This document shows, in pieces, positions 15,204 through 25,874 of a stretch of DNA of 64,000 bases; positions within the stretch are counted from its first letter, which is position 1, and each line of letters begins with the position of its first letter. The notes under the pieces are model-generated. The model made no database searches, was not told where the DNA came from, and worked only from the letters and a program-made list of their open reading frames with translations. Made by a program: the position numbers and the translations under genes. The stretch is from NCBI GenBank assembly GCA_963676905.2, contig CAXXVE010000002.1, positions 241,761 to 305,760 of the forward strand. The letters run 5' to 3'. The stretch comes from Oceanispirochaeta sp. (GTDB lineage Bacteria; Spirochaetota; Spirochaetia; DSM-2461).

Positions 15204-16235
15204 ATGGCCATAACAATCTCGGATATTGCAAAAGAGGCGGGGGTGTCGAAGGCGACAGTTTCAAGAGTCCTTTCCGGATCATCCAGTGTGCGCCCCGAGG
15301 TCCGCAGCAGGATTCAGGAGATCATTGACAGGCACGGTTATATTCCCAACAGATTTGCCCAGAGCCTGGCGGGAAACTCCAAGAAGGTTATCGGTCTTGT
15401 TATTGAAGAGCTGACCAATGATTTTTATCTTGAGATTGCTGATTCCTTCGACCGCATTGTAAGTGCCAGCGGATACACTCTTAATCTGGCCAGTTCCAGG
15501 TGGAGCGAAGAGTATGAGCTTCGGATTGTCCGTGACATGATAAGCAGTCAGGTTGAGGGTATCGTAATTGCTCCGACAAGGGAGGACTCTCCGGGAATCA
15601 AGCTTCTGAAGAAGTCCGGGGTCAAGTTTATCATTATGAACCTGAAGCCTGAAAACAGTGACCTTCCCTACGTGTGTTCGGACAACAGAGCCGGAGGTGA
15701 GATCGCCGCCCGGTGCATCAATACTCTTGGCAGGAAAATCAATCTTCTTGTAACAGGATATCAGAACAGCACTCTGGAGGACCGGATTCAGGGATTCCGG
15801 GAGTCCTATAATCTTTCCGTTCCCTTTTTTCACTACAGGGATATCAATCTGATGGGGGATGGAGCGGAGCTTGCAGAGAATCTCATTCATATTCATGATT
15901 TCAAGAAGGAGGCCGGTTCCATTTTCGTCACCAATGACAATGCCGCCATCGGACTGGAGTCGGGATTCCTGAAACTCGGCATCCGGATTCCTGAAGAGCT
16001 TGCCATCCTGGGGTATGACAACACAAGCAGGTCATCCATCTGCAGGGTTCCCCTGACCACAGTCTCCCAGGAGCTTCCGGCCTATGGACGAGTACTTGCA
16101 TACAAACTCATGAACCTTATCGAGCTCGATTCCTGCGATCTCCCGGGGATCAGTCTGCCGCCGAAGATTGTTCTGCGGGAATCAATGCCTCTGCCTGCGG
16201 GCACCTTTACTGACGAGCTTCTTGCGGCGGATTGA
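15204..16235 (+). CDS. LacI family regulator
   Basis: TISDIAKEAGVSKATVSRVL; sugar-binding domain ending PKIVLRES. Confidence 0.95.
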   Translation: MAITISDIAKEAGVSKATVSRVLSGSSSVRPEVRSRIQEIIDRHGYIPNRFAQSLAGNSKKVIGLVIEELTNDFYLEIADSFDRIVSASGYTLNLASSRWSEEYELRIVRDMISSQVEGIVIAPTREDSPGIKLLKKSGVKFIIMNLKPENSDLPYVCSDNRAGGEIAARCINTLGRKINLLVTGYQNSTLEDRIQGFRESYNLSVPFFHYRDINLMGDGAELAENLIHIHDFKKEAGSIFVTNDNAAIGLESGFLKLGIRIPEELAILGYDNTSRSSICRVPLTTVSQELPAYGRVLAYKLMNLIELDSCDLPGISLPPKIVLRESMPLPAGTFTDELLAAD

Positions 16236-16313: not shown

Positions 16314-17240
16314 TCAGAGTTTATCTTTTGTAAGTACTGATACACCTGTATCAACATACTCGGCTTCAAGAGTTTTACCATCAAGAATCTGTACAGCTGA
16401 CATCATTCCTTCGTAACCCATTACATCGGGGTTCTGTGCCATTGTAGCCAGAAGATATCCGTTCTTTACAAGGCTGAGAATCATATCAGACTTGTCAAAA
16501 CCCACTCCGACTACCTCTTTTCCGGCTTCCTGAATGGCGTTTCCTGTTCCTACGGTACAACCTTCGTTGGCACCGAAGATTCCTACACATCCCAGAGTGA
16601 TGTAGTTGGCTGCAATATCCTTGGATCTGGCGGCATCACCGTCGGAGTACTGTGTCTCCTGAATGCTGAAACCGGTTCCCTTGAAGGCTTCTCTGAAGCC
16701 TGCCTCTCTGGCAGTGGTACTGGCAGTGGCGGCATTTGTATTTACAATTCCGAGGCTTCCGGAGGTGATTCCCTTGGCTTTCAGTGCGTTCAGCATTTCT
16801 GTTCCAGCTGTTTTTCCGGCGGCTTTATTGTCAGTCGCAAGTGTCTGGTAGGCAGGGTAGTCTGCAGCAGAGTCAACATATACAATTTTGACACCTGAGT
16901 CGCTTGCTTCCTTCAGGGCGCTTGTTACGGCTGTGGGGCCGTTGGCTGCCAGAAGAATAACATCGGCTCCGGCGGCAACAGCATTGTTGATCATTTCAAT
17001 CTGTTTTGCATCGTCCTTTACATCGGGAGCCATCCATCTGTAAGTTACATTTCCAAGTTCCGCGACCGCTTTCTGGCAGCCTGCATCCACGTTCACCCAG
17101 TGCTGGTCCATCTGGTCCATTGTGATCAGGAATACTCTGTAGTTTCCCTCATCTGCGGCATCTCCGCTTCCATTTGCAAAAACAAAACCGCTGATGCTGA
17201 CTAACAGCAAGACAAAAAGAATCCTTTTCATTTGTTTCAT
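16314..17240 (-). CDS. CUT2 sugar ABC transporter substrate-binding protein
   Basis: RbsB-like fold (VYVDS, ATDNKAAG, GFD..QNPDVMGY); signal ending VFANGS. Confidence 0.9.
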   Translation of the reverse strand: MKQMKRILFVLLLVSISGFVFANGSGDAADEGNYRVFLITMDQMDQHWVNVDAGCQKAVAELGNVTYRWMAPDVKDDAKQIEMINNAVAAGADVILLAANGPTAVTSALKEASDSGVKIVYVDSAADYPAYQTLATDNKAAGKTAGTEMLNALKAKGITSGSLGIVNTNAATASTTAREAGFREAFKGTGFSIQETQYSDGDAARSKDIAANYITLGCVGIFGANEGCTVGTGNAIQEAGKEVVGVGFDKSDMILSLVKNGYLLATMAQNPDVMGYEGMMSAVQILDGKTLEAEYVDTGVSVLTKDKL

Positions 17241-17292: not shown

Positions 17293-18303
17293 TTATTTGT
17301 CATCCTTTATTTTTTTGAATGACCCAGACCGGACAACAATGTCCAGAAGAACGCTGACTACAACGATGATTCCTATGATGATGTTTCTAATGGCCACAGG
17401 GGCGCCGGCAAACTGAAGTCCGTTCTGAAGAACTCCCCAGATGGATGCACCAATAACAGTTCCCAGAAGGAGTCCCTGTCCTCCCAGAGTCGAGACACCG
17501 CCGATAACTGATGCGGCAACGGCGTAAAGCTCATAGGTGTTTCCGGCGTCCATTGCTCCCATTCCGCTTGTGGCGCAGAAGATAAGACCGACAACGGTGG
17601 CGCAGAAGGCACTGACCAGATAGGCTTTTGTAATCACAGCCACCGTATTTACTCCTGAGAGTTTAGAGGCTTCAAGGTTGGAACCTACTGCGTATATATG
17701 GCGCCCTGTTCGGGTCCGGTTGAGGATGAAGTTGAATATCACCCACAGGACCAGACCTATCCAGATCGTGTTGAAGACATTGAAGGTCCGTCCGTAGTAG
17801 AAAAAGTCCCTGAAACCCTGAGCCGCTTCACCGATGGAGTCGGTGTTGTAGTTATTGTTTGCAATCTGGGCAATTCCTCTGGCGATGGTCATTGTTCCAA
17901 GAGTCGCAATAAATGCAGGCAGCTTGCAGAGCGAGATAAGAAGACCGTTTCCGAGGCCTACAAGAAGGCAGCAGACCAGTGTTATAAGTACGGCAGTCCA
18001 GGGATTGACTCCCCGGGTCATCAGGGTCGCGCTTATCATCGTAGACATACCGATTACCGATCCGATGGACAGGTCAATGTTCCCTGTTATCAGTACATAG
18101 GACTGGCCGATTCCAATAAGAAGAATCGGAGCGATCTGTCTGAGCAGGTTGCTTATATTTTTGCTTGAAAAGAATATCGGATTCAGTATGCCGAAAACGA
18201 TGCAGAGAATGATTAAACCGATGCTGACTGTGAGGACCTGTCCCATTCCTCTGACCGACATCATTCTTTTCCAGAAACTCCAGTGTTTACCCTGTTCTAT
18301 CAT
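17293..18303 (-). CDS. CUT2 sugar ABC permease
   Basis: IDLSIGS, PAFIATLGTM, AVGSNLEASKLSGV, YELYAVAASVIGG. Confidence 0.93.
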   Translation of the reverse strand: MIEQGKHWSFWKRMMSVRGMGQVLTVSIGLIILCIVFGILNPIFFSSKNISNLLRQIAPILLIGIGQSYVLITGNIDLSIGSVIGMSTMISATLMTRGVNPWTAVLITLVCCLLVGLGNGLLISLCKLPAFIATLGTMTIARGIAQIANNNYNTDSIGEAAQGFRDFFYYGRTFNVFNTIWIGLVLWVIFNFILNRTRTGRHIYAVGSNLEASKLSGVNTVAVITKAYLVSAFCATVVGLIFCATSGMGAMDAGNTYELYAVAASVIGGVSTLGGQGLLLGTVIGASIWGVLQNGLQFAGAPVAIRNIIIGIIVVVSVLLDIVVRSGSFKKIKDDK

Positions 18304-18328: not shown

Positions 18329-19855
18329 CTATATTTTCTGTTCGAACCGTGTTGCCGATTCCATAACTTTTTCCTGGGTTACTTCGTCAGACATATACTC
18401 ACCGGTTATTCTTCCGTTGCACATGACTACGACTCTGTCGGCAATGCCTATGATTTCAGGCAGTTCTGATGATACGAAGAGGACTCCGATGCCCTTTTCC
18501 TTCAGCTCATTCATCAGATTGTAGATTTCAACTTTTGCCGCTACATCGATGCCTCTTGTGGGCTCGTCAAACATAACAACTTTGCTTTGCCGGGCGAGCC
18601 ATTTTCCGACAACAATCTTCTGCTGGTTGCCTCCGGACAGGCTGGCTGCCGGATTCTCCTGGCTGGACATTTTCACCGAAAAAATCTCTTTGGTCGTCTC
18701 AACCATTTCCCGCTCTCTGGATCTGTTTACAACACCGAGAGGATTGCAGAGGATATCCAGATTGGGAAGGGCAATGTTTTCCCTTATTGAAAGTTTTGTG
18801 CAGAGACCGTCCTTCTTCCTGTCTTCCGGGGCAAGGACAATACCCCTGCGGATAGCTTCGGCGGGAGAGTTGATGGATATCTCTTTCCCGTCCAGGTACA
18901 GCTCACCCGAGTCCTTGCGGTCTACACCGAAGATGGCTCTTGTCATTTCAGTCCGGCCGGCTCCCATCAGTCCGGCAAAGCCTATAATCTCTCCGGCATT
19001 GACCTTGAACGAGACGTCCTTGACCATCTTGCCGGCATTCAGATTCTTCACTTCAAATATTGTTTTTCCCTTCTTTACCGAGACTCTGGGAAACTGGTCG
19101 CTGATCTCACGCCCAACCATGTGGCTTATGATCTGATCCATTGTAAAATCACTGAAGTCGCCCCGGGTGATGAACTTGCCGTCCCTCATGATGGTGACCC
19201 TGTCCACAATATGCTTCAGCTCATCCAGCCTGTGGCTGATGTAGACAATACCGTGTCCCTGCTCCTTGAGGCGTCTGATAATCAGAAAGAGATCTTCTAT
19301 CTCTTTGTTTGTAAGGGCGCTGGTGGGTTCATCCATTATCAGAATCTTTGCATTGCTTGAAAGGGCTTTGGCTATTTCAACCATCTGCTGCATGGATACA
19401 GGAAGATCCCCCACCAGGGTATCGATGTCCAGGTCAATCTGAAGCTCTTCAAGTACTTTGACGGCTTCCTCTCTCATCCTGTGATTGTTCAGGACTCCGC
19501 CCATTCTGACGTTTTCCTTTCCAAGGAAAATGTTCTCCGCAACAGAAAGGTGGGGACACATATTCAGTTCCTGGTGAATTATAGCCACACCCAGCTGTTC
19601 GGCAGTCTTGGGCGAAATATCTTCGACGGTGTTTCCAAATAGGTTGATTGTTCCCTTGTCTTTGGTATAAACACCGCTGAGAATCTTTACGAGTGTTGAT
19701 TTACCGGCTCCGTTTTCTCCAAGCAGGGCCATGACTTCACCGGAACAAAGTTCGAAGGAAACATTGTCCAGAGCTTTTACTCCGGGAAAGCTCTTTGAGA
19801 TGTTTTCCATCTGTACAATTTTTTCATTCATGTAATCAGTTAAATGCCGGTTCAC
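18329..19855 (-). CDS. CUT2 sugar ABC ATP-binding protein, two NBDs (alternative start at 19831)
   Basis: GENGAGKST, ILIMDEPT, LSGGNQQK, MFDEPTRGID. Confidence 0.95.
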   Translation of the reverse strand: MNRHLTDYMNEKIVQMENISKSFPGVKALDNVSFELCSGEVMALLGENGAGKSTLVKILSGVYTKDKGTINLFGNTVEDISPKTAEQLGVAIIHQELNMCPHLSVAENIFLGKENVRMGGVLNNHRMREEAVKVLEELQIDLDIDTLVGDLPVSMQQMVEIAKALSSNAKILIMDEPTSALTNKEIEDLFLIIRRLKEQGHGIVYISHRLDELKHIVDRVTIMRDGKFITRGDFSDFTMDQIISHMVGREISDQFPRVSVKKGKTIFEVKNLNAGKMVKDVSFKVNAGEIIGFAGLMGAGRTEMTRAIFGVDRKDSGELYLDGKEISINSPAEAIRRGIVLAPEDRKKDGLCTKLSIRENIALPNLDILCNPLGVVNRSREREMVETTKEIFSVKMSSQENPAASLSGGNQQKIVVGKWLARQSKVVMFDEPTRGIDVAAKVEIYNLMNELKEKGIGVLFVSSELPEIIGIADRVVVMCNGRITGEYMSDEVTQEKVMESATRFEQKI

Positions 19856-19880: not shown

Positions 19881-21356
19881 CTAATTAGGGGGTGAATCTT
19901 TGGAAAAGGAGAAAGAATTCAGTGTATGGAAATCTTTTTTTTCAATATGGCGGATACTGTTCCCCTTTCTGAACAGAATGAGCCTGTCGGCTATTCTGAG
20001 GGCATCGGAGATACTGAAGGTCAGAATTATAAGTCCAGTTCCCTGTTTCTGCAGAATGCTCATCAGCTTGATGATCTTGAGCCTCTGGTACATGTCGACC
20101 TCTGCAAAGGGCTGTATGCAGAAAAGAACATCCGGTTTCTGCAGGGATATTCTGTTGAAAATCAGTTTGTAACACTCGGTCAGAGAGAGGGAGTAGAGGC
20201 TCTGTGCATCAATGACGGGCCCTGCAATGCTCCTGTATTCATGACTTATATGGCGTTTATACCTCCTGCGGGTCCAGAAAAATCTGATCCTTTTGTCGAT
20301 TGTAAAGCAGAGATTATCGAGATAGCTGATATCCTGAAACAGGGAGGTCTCAATCGGTTTTTCATCAAGAAATGCGAGTTTGCCGCCCGCCTTCCCGAGG
20401 GGGCTTCCGGATATAAGCAGTGCTCCGCTCCGGGGGGGCTTTCTCTTTCTGAGGAGTCCCGAAAGGGGAGCGTTAATTGAATGATCCAGATCCAGCAGCA
20501 CCAGGCACTCTCCCGCCTTGAGGCTGAATGATATGTCGTGTAGATTCTCTTCGCAGAGATTCCTTGCCGTGAGAACTTCCCTTGCTTTATCCGGTCGTGA
20601 TTCGTCCTTTTCTCTTTCCGAGAAGTCCCTGAAGAAACCGTGGGGAAAGCGTGAAATTACGTCCTGGGTCATCTGGTCTTTATGGAGGTTTTTGACTATC
20701 TGGCCGTTTTCCATGAGTACACAGCGGTGGCAGTAGGTGAAGATCTCCTCGTAGTGGTTGCAGATGTAGAGATAGGAAATCCCTTTGGATTCCGCGTAAT
20801 ATTCCATAATTGAAAGAAGCCTTCTAAGGTCATAGGGGCTTGCCGTATTGCTCAGGTCGCAGACAATGACAAGGCGGACTCCGGCCACAATGGACTTGAT
20901 CAGCTCAACGACTTTTTTTTCAAAAAAAGTGAGTTCGTCCACATACTTGTACGGCGGTATCTCAATATTCACCTCGGCGCAGAGCCTGTTGAACTGCTCA
21001 TTCAGTACGGTTCTGTTTATAAGGTATTTTTTCATTCCCTTGCGGACTACAAAGACATTTTCCGCCACTGACATCGTGTCGATCAGGCCGCTCTTGCTCT
21101 CCAGAATATAAACGGGGTTTCCCGACTGCCTCGGTTTACGGTAGTCATTGACAAGAACCTCCGACAGCCAGACGTATCCGTAGTGGATGGGATTGTTGTG
21201 TTCTATAAGCCGGATCAGCTCTTCAAGGCCCTGGGAGTTAACAGGGAGAAGGCCGAGTATCTCTCCCTTGAAGATCCGCATGTTGAAGCTGTTTAAAATA
21301 GCAGAACCTTCTCCTGTCAGGGTTACCCTGTCGAATCTGAAGAGCTCCTCTTTCAC
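19881..21356 (-). CDS. Degenerate RbsA-like ABC ATPase homologue (pseudo-ATPase)
   Basis: Two-NBD layout, but Walker A is replaced by GEILGLLPVNSQGLEE, the signature by LSLTECYKL and Walker B by VLFCIQPFAEVD. Confidence 0.75.
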   Translation of the reverse strand: MKEELFRFDRVTLTGEGSAILNSFNMRIFKGEILGLLPVNSQGLEELIRLIEHNNPIHYGYVWLSEVLVNDYRKPRQSGNPVYILESKSGLIDTMSVAENVFVVRKGMKKYLINRTVLNEQFNRLCAEVNIEIPPYKYVDELTFFEKKVVELIKSIVAGVRLVIVCDLSNTASPYDLRRLLSIMEYYAESKGISYLYICNHYEEIFTYCHRCVLMENGQIVKNLHKDQMTQDVISRFPHGFFRDFSEREKDESRPDKAREVLTARNLCEENLHDISFSLKAGECLVLLDLDHSINAPLSGLLRKRKPPRSGALLISGSPLGKAGGKLAFLDEKPIETSLFQDISYLDNLCFTIDKRIRFFWTRRRYKRHISHEYRSIAGPVIDAQSLYSLSLTECYKLIFNRISLQKPDVLFCIQPFAEVDMYQRLKIIKLMSILQKQGTGLIILTFSISDALRIADRLILFRKGNSIRHIEKKDFHTLNSFSFSKDSPPN

Positions 21357-22378
21357 AGCTCCTCCCGGGATTGTTCAGTGAGGCTGGGAAGGAATATTTC
21401 CACATCACTCCCCACATTGGGGGTACTTGTAATGGTTACGCCGTACTGTTCGCCGAAGAGGAGTTTGATCCTGTTGTTCACATTGAGAATGGCAATTCCC
21501 GTATGCCCGGGGCTCTCCTTCTCATAGTTCCCCAGACTTCGTTCAGAGAGGGATTCATGGAGCTTGCTCAAGCTGGCATTGTTCATGCCTATTCCGTCGT
21601 CACTGACTGTTATAATCAGGTTCCGCTCTGTTTTCTCAATCCGTACGGTCAGTACTCCGTCTCCGACCTTGCGTTCCAGTCCGTGGATAATCCCGTTTTC
21701 CACAATGGGCTGGAGAATCAGCTTGGGAAGCTTGTAGCGGGACAGTTCTTCGGTTATATCCACGTCTCTTAAAATTCTCAGCTGCAGCCTCTTGCCGAAT
21801 CGGTACTGCTGGATAAGAAAATATGTCTGTACGCTGTCCAGTTCATTTTCAAGAGATACAAGATTGTCCATATTGCTGATGGTGTAGCGGAAGAATCTGG
21901 AGAGGGCCTCTGTCATTTCGGCTATCGAGGTGAGGCCGGCTTCCATGGCTTCGCTCCGGATACCCTCCAGGGTGTTGTAGAGAAAGTGGGGGTTTATCTG
22001 ATTCTGAAGAGCCAGGAACTGCTCCTGCCTTTTTCCGGCCTGAAGAAAGTCCCGGGTATCAAGAAGTTTGTTGATTCTGTACACCATGCCCTGCATGCCC
22101 TCGCTGTAGGGGATGTCAATCTTATAAATTTCATCCAGAGTGAGACCCGCAGTAAAGAGCCTGAGGATCTTTTCTGTCTCCCGGAAGGGCCGGTGAACTC
22201 GCAATGCAAAGAACAGGATTCCCGCAGCGAAGTAGAGGGTGAAGAGCAGGGGGCCTGTCAATGTGACCCTCCCCGTGAACCACAGACCCCAGAGTATGCA
22301 GAGGTTTACGGCGCTTCCCAGGCAGACAAAAAGGAACAGGTAGTAGATGCGGTTCAGAAGAGGTCTTTTCAGGCTCAT
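21353..22378 (-). CDS. YesM/LytS-type sensor histidine kinase without an extracytoplasmic domain
   Basis: LQNQINPHFLYNTLE, LQPIVENGIIHG, DDGIGM; only two short N-terminal TMs. Confidence 0.9.
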   Translation of the reverse strand: MSLKRPLLNRIYYLFLFVCLGSAVNLCILWGLWFTGRVTLTGPLLFTLYFAAGILFFALRVHRPFRETEKILRLFTAGLTLDEIYKIDIPYSEGMQGMVYRINKLLDTRDFLQAGKRQEQFLALQNQINPHFLYNTLEGIRSEAMEAGLTSIAEMTEALSRFFRYTISNMDNLVSLENELDSVQTYFLIQQYRFGKRLQLRILRDVDITEELSRYKLPKLILQPIVENGIIHGLERKVGDGVLTVRIEKTERNLIITVSDDGIGMNNASLSKLHESLSERSLGNYEKESPGHTGIAILNVNNRIKLLFGEQYGVTITSTPNVGSDVEIFLPSLTEQSREEL

Positions 22379-22381
22379 GAA

Positions 22382-24028
22382 TCAACCGTAAATTTTCCGG
22401 AATTCACTGGGCTTCAGTCCGGTATGCTTTTTGAAAAGTTTTGTAAAATATTTTGTGTCGTTGTATCCCACATCAGAGGCTATGGACGAGACTGTCCTGT
22501 TGCCTGACCTGAGAATCTCCTTCGCCTTCTCCATCCGGACGGCCGTCAGGTAATCAAGGAATCCTTCGCCAGTCTGTTGTTTGAAAAGAGCGCTGAAATA
22601 GGAGCCGCTCAATCCTGCCGACAGGGCTACCTTGTCAAGGGAGAGGGTATTCTCGCTGTAGTTCCGGGATATATAGATCTTTGCATCCCGTATAGGCTGA
22701 CTGTCCTCCTGTTCCTTGACAGCCTTCAGGCTTGAGAATTGAGAGTGAATAAGATCTTTCAGATACTGGTTTATCTGACCCGTACTCTTGAGAAGGTTCA
22801 GATCCCTGTCAAACTCCTTTTCAACCTCCTGGACGGAGAGATCCCTGTAGTTTCTGTCCTTAAGAAGCAGGAAAAACCGGTGTCCCGCCTCCCTTACAGT
22901 TTCAAGTACCATCATCCCTGTGCTGTGATCCTCGTTGACAAGCTGGTCCATAAGGGTCTCTACAGCCGAAATCCCCGCTTCCGAATCGAGTAGGTCGCAA
23001 ACCGGTTCCATCTTTCTGTTCCACTCAGCAAGATATTTATCGCAAATCCCCTTTTCGTATTTGGGAAGGTCCTCAAACATATAGATTCCAGGTGTCAGAA
23101 GCCTCTCTGCAATGAGAAGCTCCGTGTCTTTCCATGATGCCCGGAGCTCTTCGGGTTGGAGAACCGGACTGCCCAGTGAAAAGAAAATCTCCGATGACTC
23201 GAAAATCTTCATGTTGACAGTCAATTCATTGTATATAAGCCGCAGCTTGTGACGTATCTCGTTTTTGGAGGAGGCCGGAAAGTTTATAAGGAGATAAATT
23301 CTGCACTCTTTCTCAACATACTCATAGTCAAAGCAGTGGCTGTTCAGATGCATCTGGAAGAGGCTGTCCGCTTTTTCAGACATCCTCTCCATTATTTTTC
23401 CCGAGAAAGATCCGGGACTGCAGTCCAGCTTGAACTGGATAATCTGCAGGTTCCCCTCCTGAAAGCTGAATCCGTAGGATTCGTTAATGGCTTTTATAGA
23501 ATTGACTGATCCGGAGGGGCTTGAAAACACATACTCTGTAAAAAAATCTTTCCTGAGCTTTTTCTTGCTCCTGTCCCACTTTTCCTGAAGCTGAAGGCTT
23601 GACTGCTCACTCTTTCTTTTGGCTATAAACTTCCGGGAGATCCTGTAGAGTGTATCGTTCAGCTCTGTCTGTTTAATGGGTTTGAGCAGATAGTCCTCCA
23701 CTCCGTATCGCAGGGCTTTATGGGCATACTCAAACTGGTGGTGACCGCTGATTATAATAAACTCAACCTTATGGTTCTGCTCCTTTATTTTGGCAATGAG
23801 TTCCAAACCGTCCATTCCGGGCATTCTTATATCGGTAATAACAAGATCGGGCTGTTCCTGCCTTATCAGATTCAGACCCTCAAGACCGTTGTAGGCGGTT
23901 CCGACAACAGTCATCTGATGCTGTTCCCAGTCGGCAAGCTGCAGAACAAGACGGCAGACTTTTTCTTCATCATCCAGAACAGCAACAGTAATAGGAGAGA
24001 GTTCATTAGTGGACGTACTATCATTCAT
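22382..24028 (-). CDS. YesN-type response regulator (REC + AraC HTH)
   Basis: VLDDE, ITDIRMPGMDG, C-terminal SIASDVGYNDTKYFTKLFKK. Confidence 0.93.
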   Translation of the reverse strand: MNDSTSTNELSPITVAVLDDEEKVCRLVLQLADWEQHQMTVVGTAYNGLEGLNLIRQEQPDLVITDIRMPGMDGLELIAKIKEQNHKVEFIIISGHHQFEYAHKALRYGVEDYLLKPIKQTELNDTLYRISRKFIAKRKSEQSSLQLQEKWDRSKKKLRKDFFTEYVFSSPSGSVNSIKAINESYGFSFQEGNLQIIQFKLDCSPGSFSGKIMERMSEKADSLFQMHLNSHCFDYEYVEKECRIYLLINFPASSKNEIRHKLRLIYNELTVNMKIFESSEIFFSLGSPVLQPEELRASWKDTELLIAERLLTPGIYMFEDLPKYEKGICDKYLAEWNRKMEPVCDLLDSEAGISAVETLMDQLVNEDHSTGMMVLETVREAGHRFFLLLKDRNYRDLSVQEVEKEFDRDLNLLKSTGQINQYLKDLIHSQFSSLKAVKEQEDSQPIRDAKIYISRNYSENTLSLDKVALSAGLSGSYFSALFKQQTGEGFLDYLTAVRMEKAKEILRSGNRTVSSIASDVGYNDTKYFTKLFKKHTGLKPSEFRKIYG

Positions 24029-24148
24029 AATCGACCATATTATTCCTCTTTAGGGTTTCCGTCGAGGTATTTCTGATGATTCCATCTTGCAGCAGTACTT
24101 TCAGAAAGGCAGCCTGTATTAAATGAAATCACTGAAATATTTCAAAAT

Positions 24149-24259
24149 ATGTAACCGATAACATCTAATTTCTTGACATAATCCGGTTTATAAGTCCTTT
24201 AAATGTGTTTTTAAGACTTTCATTTTTTATTATTGCAGATATAATGAAACCGGTTACAT
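24149..24259. promoter_or_regulatory. Two LacI-type operators (consensus ATGTAACCGGTTACAT) in the divergent promoter region
   Basis: atgtaaccgataacat at 24149-24164 and atgaaaccggttacat at 24244-24259; the latter abuts TATAAT at 24240-24245. Confidence 0.65.
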
Positions 24260-24325
24260 CCCCTTGGGCCTCTCATTTATACGGCCGCATTTACATCACA
24301 GGGCAAGTTTGTAAAAGGATCAATA

Positions 24326-24982
24326 ATGGACATATCGATATCATTTAAACATTACTGGACCCGGTTCGCAGGAAAATATCCCGTTCTTGCAGATTTGGAA
24401 GGACCTTTATATGAAGCCGCTTCGGGGATCTGCTCGGCCTATGAGAAAAAGGGGAAACTTCTAATTGCGGGAAATGGAGGAAGCGCAGCCGACGCCGATC
24501 ACATCATTGGCGAGCTGGGCAAGGGCTTTGTGTTAAAAAGGTCCCTCTCCAGGGAACAGAGGACCCTTTTAAACAGGGATACACGCTGGGGCGAGAAGCT
24601 GCTGCCCTTTCTTCAGCAGGGGCTTCCTGCCATAAACCTGCTCTCAATGCCTGCGCTTAATTCCGCCTTCGGAAATGACCAGAATGCCGCGGTGACGGCT
24701 GCTCAGAACCTCCTTACTTTTGCCTCCGGTGACGATCTCTTCCTGGGGCTCTCCACATCAGGGAATTCCGAAAACATCGTACTCGCCGCATACACAGCCC
24801 GGCAGCTCGGCCTTCGGGTTATATGCATGACGGGAAGAAAGGTGAGCCTGCTCTCGGAGCTGAGTGATACAGCCATCCGTGTCCCGGCAGATGAAACTTT
24901 TGAGATTCAGGAGTACCATCTTCCTGTCTATCACTTTCTCTGTCTGGTGGTGGAGCATTATTTTTTCGGCGAGGAGGGCTGA
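24326..24982 (+). CDS. SIS-domain sugar-phosphate isomerase (GmhA-like)
   Basis: AGNGGSAADADHI.GEL, LSTSGNSEN, IQEYHLPVYH. Confidence 0.88.
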   Translation: MDISISFKHYWTRFAGKYPVLADLEGPLYEAASGICSAYEKKGKLLIAGNGGSAADADHIIGELGKGFVLKRSLSREQRTLLNRDTRWGEKLLPFLQQGLPAINLLSMPALNSAFGNDQNAAVTAAQNLLTFASGDDLFLGLSTSGNSENIVLAAYTARQLGLRVICMTGRKVSLLSELSDTAIRVPADETFEIQEYHLPVYHFLCLVVEHYFFGEEG

Positions 24983-24983
24983 C

Positions 24984-25874
24984 GTGCTGATCGGAATTGA
25001 TATCGGAGGTACAAAAACTGCAGTTATATGGGGAAAGGAAGACGGGACTGTCACTGACAGAGTCCAGTTTCCCACAGGCCCCTGGCAGGACACCCTTGAC
25101 CGCTGCATCAGTATCCTTCGAGAGGCCGGCGGGATTGAAGGAGCTTCGGCTGTGGGAATCAGCTGCGGAGGGCCTCTGGATTCTCAAAAGGGTGTGATTC
25201 AGTCCCCTCCGAACCTTCCCGGGTGGGATAATGTGCCGGTTACCCGCTTTTTTTCAGAGAGCCTCGGCATTCCGGCATTCCTTGAAAACGATGCTAACGC
25301 CGGGGCGCTGGCGGAGTGGACCTGGGGGGTTGTGAAGGGGTGCCGCAACATGCTTTTTCTTACCTTCGGGACAGGGCTGGGAGCCGGAATCATCCTGGAC
25401 GGACGGCTTTATCGTGGGACCACTGGAATGGCCGGAGAGCTGGGCCACTGGAGGCTGGAAGACACAGGGCCTGAAGGGTATGGAAAGAGAGGCTCTTTTG
25501 AAGGCTTCTGCAGCGGCGGAGGAATCTCCCGGCTCCACAAAATGAATACGGGAGAAGAGTTCACTGCAGAGAAAATCTGCCGTCTGGCCGGGCAGGGCGA
25601 TCCTTCCTGCCTGGATACGGTTGAGACAAGCGCCCGGCATCTGGGAGCGGGGCTTTCACTCGTTATTGATCTATTGAATCCCCAGTACATTGTCCTTGGA
25701 AGCATTTATGTCCGCTCCGGGGAGCTGTTCAGACAGAAGATGGAGGATGTAATCCGGGAAGAGGTCCTCCCTGAGGCAGGACGCTGCTGTCGTATTGTTC
25801 CCTCAAGCCTGAAGGAGAGTATAGGCGATCTGGCCGCTCTGTCAGTGGCCGCTCATAAATCCCATTCACTCTAG
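24984..25874 (+). CDS. ROK family sugar kinase
   Basis: GIDIGGTKT, ENDANAGALAE, GTGLGAG, GELGH, GSFEGFCSG; GTG start at 24984. Confidence 0.92.
   Translation: MLIGIDIGGTKTAVIWGKEDGTVTDRVQFPTGPWQDTLDRCISILREAGGIEGASAVGISCGGPLDSQKGVIQSPPNLPGWDNVPVTRFFSESLGIPAFLENDANAGALAEWTWGVVKGCRNMLFLTFGTGLGAGIILDGRLYRGTTGMAGELGHWRLEDTGPEGYGKRGSFEGFCSGGGISRLHKMNTGEEFTAEKICRLAGQGDPSCLDTVETSARHLGAGLSLVIDLLNPQYIVLGSIYVRSGELFRQKMEDVIREEVLPEAGRCCRIVPSSLKESIGDLAALSVAAHKSHSL

Follow-up and report, generated by a model that had tools for sequence, protein, structure and literature searches.

An apparently dead ABC ATPase between a histidine kinase and a sugar transporter

We analysed a 64-kb stretch of DNA from Oceanispirochaeta sp. 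(the window; coordinates given without a locus prefix are positions within it), in which six genes follow one another head to tail on the minus strand. In reading order they encode a YesN-like response regulator of 548 amino acids (aa) at 22382..24028, with Pfam matches to Response_reg at residues 15-126 and to the AraC-type HTH_18 domain at residues 469-545; a YesM/LytS-type histidine kinase of 341 aa at 21353..22378, matching PF06580 His_kinase and HATPase_c; and a protein of 491 aa at 19881..21356, which we call the pseudo-ATPase on the strength of its motif loss, fold, clade and selection. It has the layout of an ATP-binding cassette (ABC) ATPase with two nucleotide-binding domains (NBDs). 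The remaining three genes specify a ribose-type (CUT2) sugar importer: a true ATPase, RbsA/XylG-like, of 508 aa at 18329..19855 (591 bits on NCBIfam RbsA, 181 bits on Pfam ABC_tran), a permease of 336 aa at 17293..18303 (BPD_transp_2), belonging to the clade that accompanies such modules, and a sugar-binding protein of 308 aa at 16314..17240 (Peripla_BP_4). The Pfam and NCBIfam assignments bear out the gene order read in the original prediction. The operon holds this single binding-protein gene, with no second, transport-independent one, and none of its six proteins has a Pfam match to a PhoU or PAS domain.

The stop codon of the kinase and the GTG start of the pseudo-ATPase overlap by 4 nt, GTGA (21353..21356, minus strand), as had been noticed before and as is read directly from the sequence. 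An element resembling a ribosome-binding site, GGGAGGAG, lies just upstream of this GTG, and the start position is confirmed by alignment with M1 of homologues. The overlap is a predicted translational coupling of kinase and pseudo-ATPase. The gap from the pseudo-ATPase stop to the true ATPase is 25 nt (49 nt to the first ATG), and a promoter and terminator scan of 15.8-24.6 kb placed no site inside it. Across the scanned region there were 4 promoter-like sites against 9.2 expected from shuffling, and 14 terminator-like sites against 9.7 (sd 3.2); counts so close to those of shuffled sequence do not define transcription units.

The ATPase fold is kept without its catalytic motifs

The pseudo-ATPase is 21% identical to the adjoining true ATPase across both NBDs. 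It scores 87-102 bits on the NCBIfam RbsA, XylG, AlsA and AraG models, whose cut-offs are 586-828, with an alignment that covers both NBDs and reaches from residue 7 to residue 468 of the RbsA model. On Pfam ABC_tran, which has a threshold of 25 bits, it scores 27 bits, in NBD1 only. At the position of the NBD1 Walker A motif (21219..21245, minus strand), alignment places PVNSQGLEE where the true ATPase has GENGAGKST. The NBD1 Walker B reads LVIVCDLS rather than ILIMDEPT, the NBD2 Walker A reads DLDHSINAP, the NBD2 signature LSLTECYK rather than LSGGNQQK, and the NBD2 Walker B VLFCIQPF rather than VVMFDEPT.

These losses extend to the family. We aligned 91 pseudo-ATPases with 67 cognate true ATPases, and all 67 of the latter are invariant at every catalytic position. 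No pseudo-ATPase retains the first Gly of the NBD1 Walker A or the NBD1 Walker B Asp, and all 91 have lost the NBD2 Walker A, the NBD2 signature glycines and the NBD2 Walker B Asp, with Gln in place of the NBD2 catalytic Glu in 84. The nucleotide pockets are filled by residues that are either non-conserved or hydrophobic, and the family has its own motifs (RDIS, YICNHH, FCVQPF and ILAVNL).

An AlphaFold2 model of the window protein, built from a 50-sequence alignment, reached a mean per-residue confidence (pLDDT) of 90.4 and a predicted template-modelling score (pTM) of 0.80. Its best structural matches in the PDB (TM-scores 0.67-0.76) are the fused double-NBD chains of mycobacterial (Mtb) DppABCD and OppABCD, and also the A2 component of methyl-coenzyme M reductase activation; scores were slightly higher against apo or substrate-bound states than against the ATP-bound state. 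A sequence search of the PDB found no CUT2 ATPase or CUT2 complex. From the model and its structural matches, taken with the loss of catalytic motifs, we conclude that the fold is kept and that the chemistry is, by prediction, gone. The two-NBD, RbsA-like layout and the loss of Walker A, LSGG and Walker B that were described earlier for the 491-aa protein thus hold, for the window protein and family-wide.

An intact fold would also be expected of an unusual nucleotide-binding ATPase acting as a second motor of the transporter, and two family counts lean the same way: the NBD1 Walker A Lys persists in 22 of the 91 members, and the NBD1 catalytic-Glu position is Asp or Glu in 84. However, the window protein has Leu at that Lys position, the first Walker A Gly and the NBD1 Walker B Asp occur in no member, and NBD2 has lost its Walker motifs and signature glycines throughout, along with the catalytic Glu in nearly all. 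The transporter clade also appears to work without a pseudo-ATPase in other genomes, as described below. We regard a second motor as very improbable.

The pseudo-ATPase gene is under selection and has one origin

A protein search returned more than 115 clusters related to the pseudo-ATPase at 24-52% identity, distributed over Bacillota and a few Spirochaetota. In a tree with true ATPases, the 91 pseudo-ATPases fall on one side of a branch with a support of 100, and nearest neighbours are identical in the pseudo-ATPase and true-ATPase clades. Branch lengths among the pseudo-ATPases are roughly threefold those among the true ATPases (0.89 against 0.30 between the window and locus L017). Ratios of nonsynonymous to synonymous substitution rates (dN/dS), computable for 13 close pairs, were 0.05-0.09, with one pair at 0.28; those of the kinase and regulator are in the same range. 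None of the 91 copies has a frame disruption. We conclude that the pseudo-ATPase is under purifying selection and has a single origin.

Loss of all catalytic motifs and roughly threefold faster evolution than the true ATPase are what a functionless, decaying duplicate might display. The dN/dS values led us to reject this reading, and it is likewise at odds with 91 undisrupted copies, conserved motifs peculiar to the family, a confidently predicted fold and retention across two phyla, so that its probability is negligible. The same dN/dS values and the single origin exclude a family of sporadic pseudogenes unlinked to kinases, an outcome for which the original prediction had allowed.

The six spirochaete copies form one clade (98 in the Shimodaira-Hasegawa-like approximate likelihood ratio test, SH-aLRT), comprising the window, Spirochaeta sp. 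UBA5339, Sediminispirochaeta bajacaliforniensis, Parasphaerochaeta coccoides and two further genomes. With the tree rooted on true ATPases, this clade is nested in one of 45 rows that includes 39 Bacillota copies. One inter-phylum transfer is enough to explain the nesting, and its direction was probably into spirochaetes; the module is in this sense able to cross phyla.

Near-obligate linkage to a kinase that lacks a sensor domain

Co-occurrence of pseudo-ATPase and kinase across genomes, which had been singled out earlier as a check, was surveyed by a locus scan covering one genome per species, with two peptide patterns seeded by the sub-alignment that shares SYLDNLCF. A pseudo-ATPase relative was present in 275 genomes, and 80 of those loci were fetched; open reading frame (ORF) starts in these related loci are longest-ORF calls. 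A short histidine kinase (median ORF 346 aa) lies directly upstream of the pseudo-ATPase in 77 of the 78 loci with enough flank, and an AraC-type regulator is found upstream in 73 of 74 testable loci. Four pseudo-ATPases looked up by identity, the most distant at 26%, each belong to the same trio. In the reverse direction, four kinases retrieved by kinase similarity (from S. bajacaliforniensis, P. coccoides, Defluviitalea saccharophila and Tepidanaerobacter) were all followed by a gene for 474-493 aa with an absent or weak ABC_tran signal, and then by ATPase, permease and binding-protein genes. The trio was thus present in all eight look-ups. The linkage of pseudo-ATPase and kinase is near-obligate.

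The single exception, L053:9001-10455, is an orphan pseudo-ATPase flanked by genes for isoleucyl-tRNA synthetase and M42-type peptidases; neither a kinase nor a regulator lies within 9 kb of it.

Kinases without a sensor domain are common, and their signal input is mostly unexplained. The kinase of the window is of this kind, as the original prediction had described it from two short transmembrane segments. Its membrane hairpin spans residues ~7-60 (22199..22360, minus strand). The family hydropathy profile places the first transmembrane helix at ~12-33 and the second at ~43-57, and AlphaFold2 predicts helices at 7-34 and 41-76 (pLDDT 91-95), with an extracytoplasmic loop of only ~6-8 residues. 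There is no Pfam sensor or HAMP match at E<=0.01. The top 120 homologues of this kinase are all 311-378 aa long. Outside the catalytic core, the features conserved in an alignment of 78 kinases from the related loci are all cytoplasmic: an N-terminal RYLSxR, a juxtamembrane motif PY..ek.l.LF..GYT at residues 64-80 (22139..22189, minus strand), and sP..e at ~92-96. The juxtamembrane motif is a candidate contact site.

The 4.8-Mb genome of the window holds 12 YesM-type kinases, of which 11 lie in open frames of 486-668 aa and one, the window kinase, is short. It also holds ~25 CUT2 ATPases, of which one is dead (637 bits; the others reach at most 247 bits). Because the sole short kinase of 12 adjoins the sole dead ATPase of ~25, their adjacency is not chance.

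The transporter clade is constant, and it occurs without the module

Two arrangements of the module and the transporter predominate. In 37 loci, including the window, the order is regulator, kinase, pseudo-ATPase, ATPase, permease and binding protein, with a gap before the true ATPase that is mostly 100-300 nt (25 nt in the window). In at least 21 loci the transporter genes come first, in the order ATPase, permease and binding protein, followed by regulator, kinase and pseudo-ATPase. Module-associated permeases score 390-670 bits against the window permease; the other CUT2 permeases of the window genome score at most 160. Five genomes lack a CUT2 transporter in the flank of the module, and in each of them one permease, and one only, falls in the cognate clade (388-562 bits, 59-77% identity), the next-best permease scoring at most 153 bits; in at least one of the five, the cognate permease lies ~10 kb off on the same contig. 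Genomes with the module thus always carry that one CUT2 transporter clade.

The reverse does not hold. In a survey of the phylum covering 401 genomes, with the three best candidates per genome scored, the permease clade was found in 9 genomes and the pseudo-ATPase in 3. An exhaustive search of five of the six permease-only genomes agreed with the survey, finding true ATPases only (best 245 bits). There is no kinase at any of the eight transporter loci examined, and at four of them the transporter has an epimerase-like gene and a LacI-type regulator for neighbours (three of the permease-only genomes, together with the second copy in G329). Because the transporter clade occurs without the module elsewhere, next to LacI-type regulators, we rejected a requirement of the module for transport. 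Judged from these gene contents, transport does not need the pseudo-ATPase, which would be a regulatory add-on and not a transport part.

Among the module-free loci of spirochaete genomes (L122, L123, L124, L126 and L128, from genomes G344, G235, G329 and G239), the LacI-type regulator accompanies the transporter at L123, L124 and L126, and the epimerase-like gene, of 419-436 aa, at L123, L124, L126 and L128. At L123 a TGA interrupts the true ATPase, leaving ORFs of 327 aa and 179 aa.

The best-conserved segments of the pseudo-ATPase point to a possible membrane partner

The three best-conserved windows of the family are SYLDNLCF, which follows the Q-loop of NBD2, VADNIFVLR, which follows the Q-loop of NBD1, and the strand SFLYICNH. 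In the window protein the NBD1 segment is SVAENVFVVR (21042..21071, minus strand), resembling SVAENIFLG of true ATPases, and the NBD2 segment is ISYLDNLCF (20304..20330, minus strand), the top conserved stretch in the family alignment; 52 of 115 family members have SYLDNLCF unchanged. Both segments retain the signature found at these positions in true ATPases (SVAENIF and LSIRENIAL). In ABC importers such as MalFGK2, the Q-loop and the helix that follows it line the cleft that receives the coupling helix of the permease. By analogy, the two post-Q-loop segments form a predicted permease-docking cleft. Their conservation is our main argument that the pseudo-ATPase may still be seated on a membrane partner.

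Several observations weigh against the signalling model built on permease docking that is set out below. Folding alone could account for the conservation of the post-Q-loop segments. The operon has a single permease gene, whose product both ATPases, dead and true, would need to use. Some modules stand beside CUT1 transporters, D-lyxose isomerase or L-arabinose isomerase instead of a CUT2 transporter. In a mirror-tree test on 62 complete loci, pseudo-ATPase distances correlate at 0.92 with those of kinase and regulator and at 0.65-0.78 with those of the transporter parts (0.78 for the permease), and the partial correlation with the permease is ~0, although the permease varies little across these loci. 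Finally, the residues of the kinase membrane helices are not conserved in the 78-kinase alignment. Because of the mirror-tree correlations, we read regulator, kinase and pseudo-ATPase as an evolutionary unit, for which the membrane partner is either the permease or the kinase hairpin.

The second of these partners defines the main rival explanation, in which the pseudo-ATPase docks on the kinase alone as a cytoplasmic input domain supplied in trans. The membrane hairpins of the kinase dimer and its conserved juxtamembrane segments would replace the permease, which the pseudo-ATPase would not touch. The input would be a ligand inside the cell or the state of the true ATPase. Co-variation with kinase and regulator, and not with the permease, is what this explanation expects, as are a linkage that is stricter to the kinase than to the transporter, the cytoplasmic position of RYLSxR and PY..ek.l.LF..GYT, and the modules beside non-CUT2 genes. 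It does not account for the one specific permease clade that is always present in module genomes, nor for the position of the best-kept stretches, which in true ATPases face the membrane subunit, and the non-conserved or hydrophobic pockets argue against a conserved small-molecule site there. We consider docking on the kinase alone rather unlikely.

The conserved post-Q-loop segments and the one permease gene for two NBD proteins would also fit a brake on transport, in which the pseudo-ATPase limits uptake by contending with the true ATPase for the permease, and owes its place beside the kinase to co-regulation only. A brake, however, leaves unexplained why the partner kinase has constantly lost its sensor domain, why the gene is translationally coupled to the kinase and why it co-varies with kinase and regulator rather than with the transporter, and the module is sometimes far from the transporter. 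It seems to us improbable.

A model for transporter-to-kinase signalling

We propose that a CUT2 ATPase paralogue lost ATP binding and hydrolysis and was retained as a signalling subunit. Translational coupling would yield the pseudo-ATPase in fixed proportion with the kinase, and regulator, kinase and pseudo-ATPase would form a three-gene unit controlling one clade of ribose-type (CUT2) importer. Retaining the cleft by which true ATPases sit on the permease, the pseudo-ATPase would dock on the cognate permease dimer, and the fraction of dimers so occupied would become non-transporting receptors. When a sugar-loaded binding protein docked on the outside, the resulting change in the permease would be passed through the dead NBDs to the juxtamembrane segments of the kinase. 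The kinase would then phosphorylate the AraC-type regulator, inducing the operon and probably also the divergent SIS and ROK genes upstream of it.

The steps of this model differ in strength. That the pseudo-ATPase is a dedicated subunit of the sensor-less kinase is very likely. We infer the physical contacts and the direction of signalling, and the whole chain, with the pseudo-ATPase as a retained signalling subunit that relays the state of the permease to the kinase, has in our estimate an even chance of being right. More tentative, and a little short of even, is the proposal that the dead NBDs turn part of the ribose-type permease complexes into receptors which relay the loaded binding protein to the kinase. 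The original prediction held that the pseudo-ATPase is an adaptor relaying transporter state to the kinase, and it is partly supported. The co-occurrence with a kinase proposed as its check is strong, at 77 of 78 loci, and transport is predicted not to depend on the pseudo-ATPase. For the relay, post-Q-loop conservation and the constant permease clade are in favour, and the mirror-tree result and the non-CUT2 neighbours are against it or neutral.

Control region, flanking genes and variant loci

A divergent control region at 24029..24325 separates the operon from SIS and ROK genes upstream (24326-25874). It contains two palindrome-like boxes of 16 bp, ATGTAACCGATAACAT at 24149-24164 and ATGAAACCGGTTACAT at 24244-24259, which look like operators of the LacI family. 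A convergent LacI-type gene lies downstream of the operon at 15204..16235, and the boxes are candidate operators, possibly for its product. A repressor and the two-component system may both act on the operon.

A ROK kinase and an SIS-domain protein flank the module at two loci outside the window as well, L013:3683-5312 and L098:3723-5349, in a Caproiciproducens genome and in P. coccoides. Other module loci carry D-lyxose isomerase or phosphomannose isomerase. Such neighbours hint at a mannose- or lyxose-like sugar as the substrate.

Some loci depart from the usual set of transporter genes. At L057:12575-15751 and L085:3014-6095 the trio stands beside a CUT1-type transporter (SBP_bac_1 and two small permeases). 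At L046:3578-5431, where the transporter is upstream of the regulator, the binding protein has 617 aa with two Peripla_BP_4 domains in one chain, and binding-protein ORFs of ~590-680 aa occur at L050, L055, L058, L061, L066, L072, L078, L080, L082, L083, L088, L092 and L093; one half of such a double protein might be a sensing copy. At L041:10650-12162, in a Caproiciproducens metagenome-assembled genome, the true ATPase is split into ORFs of 103 aa and 409 aa, which may reflect a frameshift or an assembly error.

Comparison with known systems

In a literature search that covered few subscription journals, no account turned up of a dead ABC ATPase that acts together with a histidine kinase. Across hundreds of species of anaerobes from guts, rumens, digesters and sediments, a whole family of sensor-less kinases comes with this one fixed partner. 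Proteins of the partner family are currently annotated as ordinary sugar ABC transporter ATP-binding proteins, and their recognition would correct those annotations. It would also give bacteria a clear example of a pseudoenzyme retained for signalling. The six genes make a compact system for the study of transporter-to-kinase signalling.

The pseudo-ATPase is homologous to the CUT2 tandem ATPases (RbsA, MglA, XylG and AraG), shares their two-NBD layout and fold, and is encoded beside a true member, but it is devoid of their catalytic motifs and falls well short of the family score cut-offs, and it stands as a separate clade linked to a kinase and not as a transport motor. The kinase and regulator have the domains of YesM/YesN systems, without the extracytoplasmic sensor and HAMP domain that characterize them. 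In UhpC-UhpB, a transporter paralogue gave up transport and serves as the input of a kinase that controls the real transporter; UhpC, however, is a membrane protein of the major facilitator superfamily that binds the ligand itself, whereas the part recruited here is a soluble ABC ATPase.

In the BceAB-BceRS systems of Bacillota, a two-helix kinase without an outside sensor is thought to read an ABC transporter and not a ligand (PMC3023708; bioRxiv 10.1101/2020.02.28.969956). The window kinase likewise has two helices and a minimal loop and is encoded with an ABC transporter. Unlike the window transporter, that of Bce is a pump for resistance to peptide antibiotics. Its ATPase is active, signalling requires hydrolysis by this ATPase, and there is no additional dead one. 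The Bce regulator is OmpR-type and the Bce kinase of another family, in contrast to the PF06580 kinase and AraC-type regulator of the window, and the BceB-type permease has a large extracellular domain where the window has a BPD_transp_2 sugar importer and a separate binding protein.

PhoR-PhoU-PstSCAB is a second precedent, in which a kinase without a periplasmic sensor reads a binding-protein-dependent importer cytoplasmically through a non-enzymatic adaptor (PMC9239213, PMC5775613, PMC13577022). PhoU, however, has no kinship with ABC ATPases; its binding partners are the active ATPase PstB and, in PhoR, the PAS domain. The candidate adaptor of the window is a dead ATPase paralogue, and the window kinase has no PAS domain.

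Closest in kinase and regulator families, and likewise controlling a sugar ABC transporter, are XylFII-LytS-YesN and the CuaD-type sensors of Clostridia, which combine a PF06580 kinase, a regulator with REC and AraC domains and, as a third component, a transport-dead paralogue of a transporter part (PMC10384115, PMC3656788, PMC8050422). There the third component, a paralogue of the binding protein, is extracellular and uses a large extracytoplasmic kinase domain as its docking site; the window kinase has no such domain, and its third component is a cytoplasmic ATPase paralogue. If the proposed mechanism is true, it would constitute a third, inside-facing way of recycling ABC parts into two-component signalling, besides flux sensing by Bce and outside docking by XylFII, and the first with a pseudo-ATPase as the recycled part.

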